A stretch of DNA of 253 bases. It comes from Escherichia coli. GTDB taxonomy: Bacteria > Pseudomonadota > Gammaproteobacteria > Enterobacterales > Enterobacteriaceae. Made by a program: the position numbers and the translations under genes. The DNA is taken from assembly GCF_003334815.1 (NCBI RefSeq), contig NZ_QOWO01000138.1; one strand, written 5' to 3'. This document shows, piece by piece, positions 1 through 253 of the stretch (within the stretch, counting starts at the first letter, position 1; each line of letters opens with the position of its first letter). The notes under the pieces are model-generated. The model saw nothing but the letters and a program-made list of their open reading frames with translations. It had not been told where the DNA came from and searched no databases.

Positions 1-2
1 GC

Positions 3-251
3 GAGAGAGCGTTGCCGCAGGCAACGACCCGAAGGGCGAAGCGCGCAGCGCTGAGTAATCCTTCCCCCACCACCATCACTTTCAAAAGCCCCGGAATTCT
101 CAAACGAATCCGCAATCAAATATTCTGCCCAAGCGGGGAAGGATGAGAAGCTTCGACCAAGGTTCGACTTGAGCGCCAGCGAGAGAGCGTTGCCGCAGGC
201 AACGACCCGAAGGGCGAAGCGCGCAGCGCTGAGTAATCCTTCCCCCACCAC
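3..251 (-). CDS. Hypothetical stop-free reading frame on the minus strand (fragment, open at both window ends); no recognisable product
   Basis: Minus-strand codons occupying plus triplets 249-251 down to 3-5 contain no stop over 83 codons. Translation: [83 protein letters not shown]. Plus-strand tca occurs only at 76, 82, 100 and 116 (all out of this frame); no tta or cta anywhere. Caveats: the 178-bp period is not a multiple of 3, so the two repeat copies are read in different frames; the second half is Arg-rich like off-frame GC-rich sequence; third-position GC is about 70% in the first 40 codons but about 53% in the rest; no similarity search possible. An ATG on the minus strand at plus 76-74 (MVVGEGLL...) is a possible start in a different frame. 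Confidence 0.15.
10..26. other. Perfect hairpin: 7-bp stem CGTTGCC / GGCAACG with 3-nt loop GCA
   Basis: Seen directly: 10-16 cgttgcc is the exact reverse complement of 20-26 ggcaacg, loop 17-19 gca. All seven pairs are Watson-Crick. No U/T tract follows on either strand, so it is not an intrinsic terminator. Function unknown. Confidence 0.45.
40..52. other. Hairpin: 5-bp stem AGCGC / GCGCT with 3-nt loop GCA
   Basis: Seen directly: 40-44 agcgc pairs with 48-52 gcgct, loop 45-47 gca. It lies in a GC-palindromic tract (gcgcgc, agcgct), so alternative registers exist. Function unknown. Confidence 0.35.
58..144. repeat. 10-bp perfect inverted repeat pair: ATCCTTCCCC (58-67) and GGGGAAGGAT (135-144), bracketing the AT-richer core
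   Basis: Seen directly: the reverse complement of 58-67 equals 135-144 exactly. Extension fails on both sides (57 a vs 145 g; 68 c vs 134 c). The left arm is inside the 75-bp repeat, so 236-245 is also complementary to 135-144. Biological meaning not established. Confidence 0.6.
188..204. other. Second copy of the 7-bp stem / GCA-loop hairpin (inside repeat copy 2)
   Basis: Identical sequence to 10-26, shifted by 178 nt. Confidence 0.45.
218..230. other. Second copy of the 5-bp stem / GCA-loop hairpin (inside repeat copy 2)
   Basis: Identical sequence to 40-52, shifted by 178 nt. Confidence 0.35.
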
Positions 252-253
252 CA

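Follow-up and report, generated by a model that had tools for sequence, protein, structure and literature searches.

The perfect inverted repeat in the tail of the Escherichia coli tyrT-tyrV operon is the closing helix of RtT RNA

In the tail of a tRNA-Tyr operon of Escherichia coli, a 10-nt sequence lies between two copies of its reverse complement, which raises the questions of whether a helix is formed and maintained there, which of the two copies takes part in it, and what purpose it might serve. In the 253-nt stretch of DNA analyzed here (the window), ATCCTTCCCC at 58-67 and again at 236-245 is the exact reverse complement of GGGGAAGGAT at 135-144. A repeat finder returned two pairs of 10-nt arms with 100% complementarity, 58-67/135-144 with 67 nt between them and 135-144/236-245 with 91 nt between them, as the original prediction had placed them. 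That prediction also took such a repeat to be uncommon, which it is, but the estimate of a few percent was too high, since a perfect inverted repeat of at least 10 nt occurred in 1.1% of 2000 dinucleotide-preserving shuffles of the 178-nt unit. The division into an AT-richer and a GC-rich part is borne out by GC contents of 0.46 (68-134) and 0.64 (145-235). A TAA at 56-58 and an ATG at 143-145 do overlap the arms where they were said to; these overlaps are incidental.

Table 1. Features of the window and of related repeats behind other E. coli tRNA genes
Feature	Positions	Strand	Description
3' part of rtV2	1-75	+	Holds H2 (10-26), CCCGAAGGG (28-36), and H3 (40-52), followed by the C arm and a tRNA-like tail
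19-nt copy of the tRNA-Tyr 3' end, AATCCTTCCCCCACCACCA	57-75	+	Identical to the last 19 nt of tyrT/tyrV; contains the last T-loop bases, T-stem 3' strand, acceptor 3' strand, discriminator base, and CCA
C arm of rtV2, ATCCTTCCCC	58-67	+	P1 3' strand of the upstream unit
Linker between units	76-134	+	A20 C19 G7 T13; C-rich, G-poor, weakly structured
Repeat rtV3	122-253	+	Full Rfam RtT match, 134.2 bits
G arm, GGGGAAGGAT	135-144	+	P1 5' strand; GGG is acceptor 5-7, GAAGG is the T-stem 5' strand, AT pairs T-loop bases 59-60
Hairpin GAAgCTT/AAGgTTC	147-165	+	Seen in MFE folds
Hairpin H1, CTTGAGC GCCA GCGAGAG	168-185	+	Central tandem G.A/A.G
Hairpin H2, CGTTGCC GCA GGCAACG	188-204	+	First GCA-loop hairpin
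Hairpin H3, AGCGC GCA GCGCT	218-230	+	Second GCA-loop hairpin
Same 19-nt copy, closing rtV3	235-253	+	Identical to the last 19 nt of tyrT/tyrV
C arm of rtV3, ATCCTTCCCC	236-245	+	P1 3' strand, likely partner of 135-144
Unpaired tail of rtV3, CACCACCA	246-253	+	
Tyr arms (5'/3')			GGGGAAGGAT / ATCCTTCCCC
proK repeat			Rfam RtT 101 bits; Pro arms (5'/3') GAGGAT / ATCCTC
lysT operon repeats			Rfam RtT 47-60 bits; Lys arms (5'/3') CGTG(A/T)AGGAT / ATCCTGCACG
serX repeat			Rfam RtT 36-46 bits; Ser arms (5'/3') GGGGGGAT / ATCCCCCC
argV-Q repeats			Rfam RtT 31 bits, below threshold; Arg arms (5'/3') GGGAGGAT / ATCCTCCC, extended by CC/GG and GCA/TGC

Identity and genomic setting of the repeat

The window matches E. 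coli K-12 MG1655 at 100% identity, and 4700 of 5426 complete E. coli genomes contain close matches to it. In MG1655, a promoter-like site, tyrT, one repeat, tyrV, and three tandem 178-nt repeats follow one another on one strand, and the window is the tail of this tRNA-Tyr operon, comprising the 3' part of rtV2 and the whole of rtV3. On the MG1655 locus as extracted, tyrT lies at 841-925, tyrV at 1135-1219, and the window at 1501-1753, with four annotated RtT sRNAs, each labeled "RtT sRNA, processed from tyrT transcript" in RefSeq; the annotation at 1444-1575 covers the rtV2 part of the window. The repeat finder gave the 178-nt direct repeat as 1-75 and 179-253, which are 100% identical. The Rfam RtT model (RF00391, gathering score 45 bits) matched 122-253 over model positions 1-130 (134.2 bits, E = 5e-30) and, in part, 1-75 over model positions 57-130 (70.8 bits). 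The inverted repeat thus corresponds to the closing helix (P1) of RtT RNA, already catalogued in Rfam.

The RtT element is a tRNA-linked repeat (TLR) cotranscribed with tyrT and tyrV; it lies downstream of tRNA-Tyr in the tyrT operon transcript, on the same (+) strand. The gene of the RNA is named rttR, with rtT and rtV1-3 as the repeats of the E. coli tyrT operon, and the RNA is presumably about 171 nt long and processed from the primary transcript, in line with the RefSeq note. The inverted repeat is therefore an already known feature: the repeat was described in 1978 and the RNA in 1991 (reportedly by Bosl & Kersten), and the helix is in Rfam. We find no essential difference between the window element and the Rfam entry, which agree in sequence, closing helix, place behind tRNA-Tyr, and strand, except that the E. 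coli stem is 10 bp long against a conserved core of 8 to 9 bp and that H3, unpaired in the Rfam consensus, covaries here. The first description of TLRs is that of Egan and Landy in 1978, and K-12 has 22 copies at ten loci (PMC8144298). The names rtT and rtV1-3 come from the strain table in the supplement of that paper (PMC8144298). The position in a tRNA or rRNA operon by which TLRs are recognized is also that of the window repeats.

Several other identities were considered and rejected. ARAGORN found no tRNA in the window and the Rfam tRNA model had no match there, which excludes a tRNA or pseudo-tRNA, and a cloverleaf would require a 7-bp acceptor stem where only three acceptor-type pairs are present. 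A circular or viroid-like RNA, a reading prompted by the 1.4 units that the window spans, has no ribozyme match at E ≤10, and the repeats are a chromosomal tandem array. An intrinsic terminator is at odds with arms 67 to 91 nt apart and with a stem followed by CACCACCA instead of a U run. No terminator-like site was found on the + strand of the whole operon, and the literature on Rho termination in tyrT yielded nothing usable. A 225-nt Rho site was reportedly described by Kupper et al. in 1978. The linker between the units has a rut-like composition.

Conservation and compensatory change in the closing helix

Orthologs were sought with a pattern anchored inside the domain and not on the arms, which gave 120 loci, nearly all in Enterobacterales; pattern matches in Chloroflexi, Bacillus, Acidobacteriota, and Zixibacteria were attributed to chance and left out. 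We aligned 122 distinct complete copies from about 100 Enterobacterales species with MAFFT (alignment A1). RNAalifold did not recover P1 or H2 from this alignment, because a G-arm variant with a 1-nt deletion and variants in hairpin length were misaligned. Pairs were hence counted on a structure that we specified, and the arms were also checked directly. Counted in this way, on an alignment not fitted to the structure, 93.5% of P1 cells form standard pairs, and one P1 pair is GC in 109 copies, AU in 11, and GU in 2. The structure as a whole beat 500 of 500 shuffles as well as every slid control. When the duplexes were evaluated directly (3 of the 122 arm extractions being artefacts of an earlier TGAGAA match), P1 reached at least 8 bp in 116 of 122 copies, with a median of 10 bp and -16.9 kcal/mol compared to -9.2 kcal/mol for a shuffled 3' arm. 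Only 73 of 122 copies form the outermost E. coli pair, 135-245, and we conclude that the conserved helix is 8 to 9 bp long. Inside the domain, changes on both sides were found in four of the seven pairs of H1, in six of seven in H2 (with 94% of cells paired), and in all five pairs of H3. An example in H1 is pair 40-57 of the alignment, which is UA in 62 copies, GC in 32, and CG in 19.

The 3' end of the element follows the tRNA gene beside it. The 3' 18-mer of RtT equals the tRNA-Tyr 3' end of its own locus in 116 of 132 copies. In Pantoea, Izhakiella, Budvicia, and Pragia, which we place in two families, presumably Erwiniaceae and Budviciaceae, the tRNA 7-66 pair is A-U and not G-C. Copies whose tRNA has U at position 66 carry U in the RtT 3' arm and A in the 5' arm (17/17), and in all others the RtT pair is C/G (115/115). 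Because positions 7 and 49 are not adjacent in the tRNA, the G arm is out of reach of gene conversion from the tRNA gene, and its switch from G to A is therefore truly compensatory. The tail, although unpaired, follows the tRNA as well, with A or G at position 70, which shows that the 3' block also evolves in concert with the tRNA. A GGGT-type G arm forms a G.U pair on the + strand in 24 copies, where the - strand would have a C.A mismatch; since the G.U pair is tolerated there, the relevant molecule is the RNA of the + strand.

Sister repeats behind other tRNAs repeat the pattern. The RtT model reaches its gathering score behind proK, serX, and the lysT operon, and not behind argV-Q. In each of these repeats, the 3' end equals the 3' end of its own tRNA and the 5' arm is its complement (Table 1), such that, on comparison of these paralogs, the helix is kept through many simultaneous changes in both strands. 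Compensatory change between the arms, for which the original prediction had suggested looking in homologs, is thus present among both orthologs and paralogs, and together they show, at the level of sequence comparison, that P1 is maintained by selection. The present analysis shows this re-fitting of the closing helix to Tyr, Ser, Arg, Pro, and Lys tRNAs. From this re-fitting for each tRNA, together with the tracked base-pair change in tRNA-Tyr, we argue for selection on a structure that resembles a tRNA end.

A tRNA-like 3' end and its possible roles

We propose that the G arm and the C arm at 236-245 enclose a conserved domain of three to four hairpins and leave the tail CACCACCA-3' single stranded, and that P1 would in this form present a tRNA-like 3' end. 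RNase E would cut just past the CCA, tRNA 3' exonucleases would trim to the CCA, and the cut and trimming would release and stabilize each RtT unit. The register would be set because the upstream arm has either been cut away or is occupied beforehand, within the tRNA or the previous unit. Excision and stabilization by such a 3' maturation route have been suggested by the authors of PMC8144298 for the repeats linked to 5S rRNA. Overall, we consider an RtT closing helix whose tRNA-like 3' end would support processing and stability to be the best explanation of the inverted repeat, and we hold it with good confidence.

Several findings on TLRs constrain what such processing might be for. The function originally claimed was later attributed to a neighboring gene, TLRs are stated to "have no known function," and a strain deleted for all 22 TLRs appears in the strain table of the same paper (PMC8144298). 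Since this strain exists, any TLR function is dispensable in the laboratory. The arms offer a concrete handle for probing what RtT/TLR RNAs do.

The structure that P1 appears to resemble is a shortened acceptor/T-arm minihelix in which the RtT module replaces the T loop. Like the minihelix of a tRNA, it is a continuous helix of T-stem pairs and acceptor pairs 5-68 to 7-66, with the ...CACCACCA-3' of the tRNA itself at its end. It differs in that the Tyr repeat has only three acceptor pairs, which is why its 3' overhang is 8 nt long rather than 4 nt, and in that about 91 nt stand in place of the T loop. This likeness allows for other roles, which we consider unlikely as a group: TLRs as mimics or decoys of the acceptor/T arm, or a G arm that acts as a toggle, with a conceivable mobile origin. 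As mimics, TLRs may present a conserved module at the T-loop position of a tRNA-specific minihelix. As decoys, the released RNAs may compete for processing nucleases, the CCA enzyme, tRNA-targeting toxins, or phage factors. As a toggle, the G arm may alternate between the 3' strand of the upstream tRNA and its own 3' end and so couple tRNA folding to processing or termination. By analogy, a direct repeat of 18 to 19 nt of the tRNA end around a small module recalls attachment-site scars, and a mobile origin is conceivable.

Known relatives share some features with the RtT repeats and differ in others. The TLRs of E. coli K-12 include those behind proK, serX, lysT-Q, and argV-Q as well as rrA, rrB, and rrF behind 5S rRNA. 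Their core is detected by the RtT model, and their closing helix is fitted to each tRNA. They share with the window repeats a last 18 to 19 nt equal to the 3' end of the upstream RNA gene, the hallmark of TLRs, and are cotranscribed and processed with that gene (PMC8144298). Most other TLRs are single, in contrast to the tandem array of 178-nt Tyr units, and the Lys and Arg repeats are without the GAGAA...TTCGA hairpin. RrA/B/F bind Hfq and CsrA in vitro, whereas the TLRs of tRNA operons score <0.01 in a CsrA-binding predictor (PMC8144298). As proposed for RtT, 3'ETS-leuZ, the 3' external transcribed spacer of glyW-cysT-leuZ and a functional by-product of a tRNA operon, is a stable RNA freed from a tRNA precursor by RNase E (PMC8144298); 3'ETS-leuZ is a base-pairing sRNA sponge, whereas RtT has no known target or partner.

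Competing registers and origins

Each G arm in the array lies between two C arms, and the original prediction named the pairing of 58-67 with 135-144 first. Its claim of a stem in transcribed RNA stands, in that there is indeed a stem, on the + strand and under selection, but the pairing named first is not the catalogued one. The second pairing that it offered, around the GC-rich domain, is the one that matches the Rfam consensus, in which 136-142 and 144 pair with 236 and 238-244 (GGGAAGG and U with A and CCUUCCC in the structure line); of the tandem or circular context given for it, a chromosomal tandem array is the one present. We consider it likely that the G arm at 135-144 pairs as RtT P1 with the C arm at 236-245, about 100 nt downstream.

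In the alternative register, which we regard as decidedly unlikely to matter, the pairing of 58-67 with 135-144 would be relevant in the primary transcript, where each G arm would fold onto the tRNA-like 3' end that precedes it, in the tRNA or in the previous repeat. The hairpin so formed around the C-rich linker could compete with the folding of tRNA-Tyr or could modulate cleavage by RNase E or loading of Rho in the linker. Covariation or helix extension cannot separate the two registers, because the tandem partners share sequence and flanks, and the weighing of one against the other draws on folding, on the parts enclosed, and on processing.

Folding depends on what is allowed to pair. Unrestricted folding favors the upstream register, with a probability of 0.91 to 1.0 in the window and 0.92 to 0.97 in the full transcript, where the 3' strand of tyrV is also among the partners. 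For the transcript from tyrV to the end, it gives -218.2 kcal/mol for the upstream register versus -196.5 kcal/mol, a gain of 22 kcal/mol that comes from long-range pairs among near-palindromic hairpins of separate repeats. We find such inter-repeat pairs implausible, and on these model energies we judge the global MFE of long transcripts to be unreliable as evidence on the register. With only local pairs allowed, the registers differ by 1.7 to 3.5 kcal/mol, and a fold limited to a span of 115 to 130 nt pairs the window's G arm with the downstream C arm at a probability of 0.97. Furthermore, pairing with tyrV would unfold an essential tRNA, and the energy model ignores tertiary contacts. Comparison with shuffles, the folding check proposed with the original prediction, did not favor the unit as phased there: at 1-178 it folds no better than shuffled sequence (z = -0.92 on the + strand and +0.84 on the - strand), because this phase splits the structured domain. 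Properly phased, z is -1.59 for 83-253, -3.05 for 135-245, and -3.50 for 58-144, the last of which speaks for the upstream register, with the values for 135-245 and 58-144 inflated because their ends were chosen at the perfect stem.

The distribution of arms also has two sides. An upstream C arm is present for 158 of 158 G arms examined, 28 were scored as without a downstream C arm, and several arrays end in a partial unit that has an upstream partner only. About 10 of these 28, however, have just a 1-nt deletion in the downstream arm. Two further observations favor the downstream register: the upstream partner of the first repeat is the 3' strand of a real tRNA, and short RtT variants in several genera keep ATCCTTCCC right after H2 and have a tail that is not tRNA-like.

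What each register would enclose differs sharply in conservation. Mean pairwise identity is 0.75 in the domain enclosed by the downstream register (median 90 nt) versus 0.36 in the linker (median 56 nt, computed across 83 loci), which has a G content of 11%; the unconserved linker counts against the upstream pairing. So does processing, since RNase E cuts with high efficiency 1 to 3 nt after the CCA in the trailers of tyrT, lysW, lysY, and proK (PMC2241853), and operon spacers accumulate in an RNase E mutant (PMC3082872). The linker at 76-134 probably holds such an RNase E site just after the CCA. A cut there would leave the upstream arm on a separate molecule, and 58-67 can pair with 135-144 only in the unprocessed precursor. 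All four tRNAs with these mapped trailers have TLRs behind them.

A further possibility is that the complementarity is a historical by-product without a role at the RNA level: partial copies of the tRNA would have brought in both strands of the stem, and unequal crossing-over and gene conversion with the tRNA gene would have kept the array uniform. The composition of the G arm, which joins acceptor 5-7 to the T-stem 5' strand, fits this origin, as does the 5' arm of the Arg repeat, which includes nearly the whole acceptor 5' strand. A tail that follows the tRNA at position 70 although unpaired points to concerted evolution rather than selection for pairing, and the withdrawn function and the construction of a strain without any of the 22 TLRs (PMC8144298) also speak for a by-product. 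Against it, the G arm changed from G to A at every one of the 17 copies with U at position 66, a change that conversion cannot reach; across Enterobacterales, both the element and the three hairpins inside it are conserved, with numerous double changes; and G.U pairs are tolerated on the + strand only. A purely historical origin is contradicted by the compensatory change and by the covariation in the hairpins, and we consider this explanation very unlikely.

It is extremely improbable that the arms act as DNA, in a cruciform or as a recombination signal, or as coding sequence of the tpr ORF from the ATG at 143, since the presence of the inverted repeat on both strands and the annotation in K-12 of a "protamine-like" tpr ORF that starts inside the G arm (PMC2731890) are set against an arm spacing of 67 to 91 nt that is unfavorable to cruciform extrusion, G.U-type changes that fit the RNA of one strand only, and an ORF that, among 122 distinct copies, has 9 codons in the window copy, 5 codons in 56 copies, no ATG in 31, and its intact 29 aa in only 3.

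Within the domain closed by P1, a second part of the tRNA recurs. Long TLRs hold another copy of the cognate T-stem 5' strand and T loop, AAGGTTCGA in Tyr, GGAGGTTCGA in Pro, and GGGGTTCGA in Ser. In the window, this copy forms the 3' strand of the hairpin at 147-165, for which Rfam draws instead a long-range helix of 154-166 with 208-216; the ortholog data fit both. The second copy is paired with a tRNA-specific partner, which differs in the Pro and Ser repeats.

Inner hairpins, the internal tRNA-like copy and the Rfam model

Among the Enterobacterales copies, all five base pairs of H3, the last inner hairpin of the RtT unit, show changes on both sides, and one subfamily carries a tandem G.A variant of it (GGAGC/GCGAC). 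This covarying hairpin differs from the Rfam RtT consensus, in which the same positions are unpaired. In most species a tandem G.A/A.G mismatch interrupts the first inner hairpin, H1; Serratia (GTCTCAC/GTGAGAC) and Pectobacterium (AAAACCG/CGGTTTT) have Watson-Crick pairs in its place.

Long tRNA-linked repeats (TLRs) hold a second, internal copy of the 5′ strand of the cognate tRNA T-stem together with the T loop (AAGGTTCGA, GGAGGTTCGA, GGGGTTCGA), and the strand that partners this copy is tRNA-specific. Comparison of paralogous sequences supports a predicted local hairpin at this position, whereas the Rfam RtT model places the same bases in a long-range helix. In the Lys repeats, the Rfam match begins within the upstream tRNA-Lys, such that its 5′ arm is the acceptor 5′ strand of that tRNA; a local 5′ arm, CGTG(A/T)AGGAT, gives a 9-10 bp helix inside the repeat.

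Locations of features in the window and in retrieved loci (L numbers)
Feature	Location	Detail
Hairpin H1	window 168-185	
Hairpin H3	window 218-230 and 40-52	AGCGC-GCA-GCGCT
Internal T-stem/T-loop copy	window 147-165; L129 (proK repeat) 349-482; L126 585-721	
tpr "protamine-like protein" ORF	window 143-171	ATG at 143, TGA at 170-172
Linker between units	window 76-134	
Rfam RtT matches, Lys repeats	L128 62-230, 351-517, 655-821, 877-1044	
Short RtT variants	L018 (second copy), L048, L056, L065, L091	
Arrays with terminal partial unit	L013, L036, L042, L063, L079, L088, L093, L097, L117	
REP-like palindrome	L001 (E. coli tyrT locus) 1836-1870	GTAGGTCGGATAAGCGAAGCGCATCCGAC
Rfam naRNA4 match	L129 176-255	

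The tpr reading frame

The tpr ORF is not conserved. Among 122 distinct copies, 56 have a stop that leaves 5 codons, 31 have no ATG, and the 29-aa form occurs in only 3. In the window copy the frame is shortened to 9 codons by a C-to-T change that creates a TGA, and the same change converts a C-G pair of H1 to U.G.

Variant units, array ends and the linker

Short RtT variants that lack both CCCGAAGGG and H3 were found in Serratia, Winslowiella, Erwinia and Cedecea. In these variants the second inner hairpin, H2, is joined directly to (T)AATCCTTCCC, and the tail beyond this does not resemble tRNA; one locus (L056) has a tandem pair of such 3′ modules. Many arrays close with a partial unit composed of the linker, the G arm of the closing helix and part of the domain, without a downstream C arm, and in one of them (L097) this unit leads into a hairpin resembling an intrinsic terminator. 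The E. coli K-12 array, in contrast to these, ends exactly at CCA.

The linker of the window is rich in C and poor in G (7/59 nt). Across 83 loci its G content is 11%, and its sequence is unconserved. Judged from base composition, such a C-rich, G-poor linker would suit Rho loading. Kupper et al. reportedly placed, in 1978, a Rho-dependent stop ~225 nt beyond the tyrV CCA; if that is true, the RtT copies in the window may be reached by read-through only.

Genomic surroundings and assembly labels

A REP-like palindrome lies ~85 nt 3′ of the array at the E. coli tyrT locus, and an Rfam naRNA4 match adjoins the proK repeat. In E. coli Stbl4 (NZ_CP081009.1), the RtT array is interrupted by insertion of an ISAs1-family transposase, and 19 of the E. 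coli places matching the window are plasmid-borne. Loci at odds with their assembly labels were seen in three assemblies (L081, L084 and L119), probably as a result of mislabelling or contamination. Six RtT copies of the Pantoea type, repeating every 167 nt, are present in "Enterobacter ludwigii" EnVs2, and the assemblies that bear the names Chryseobacterium sp. 18061 and Martelella alba contain tRNA-Tyr/RtT loci of the typical enterobacterial kind.
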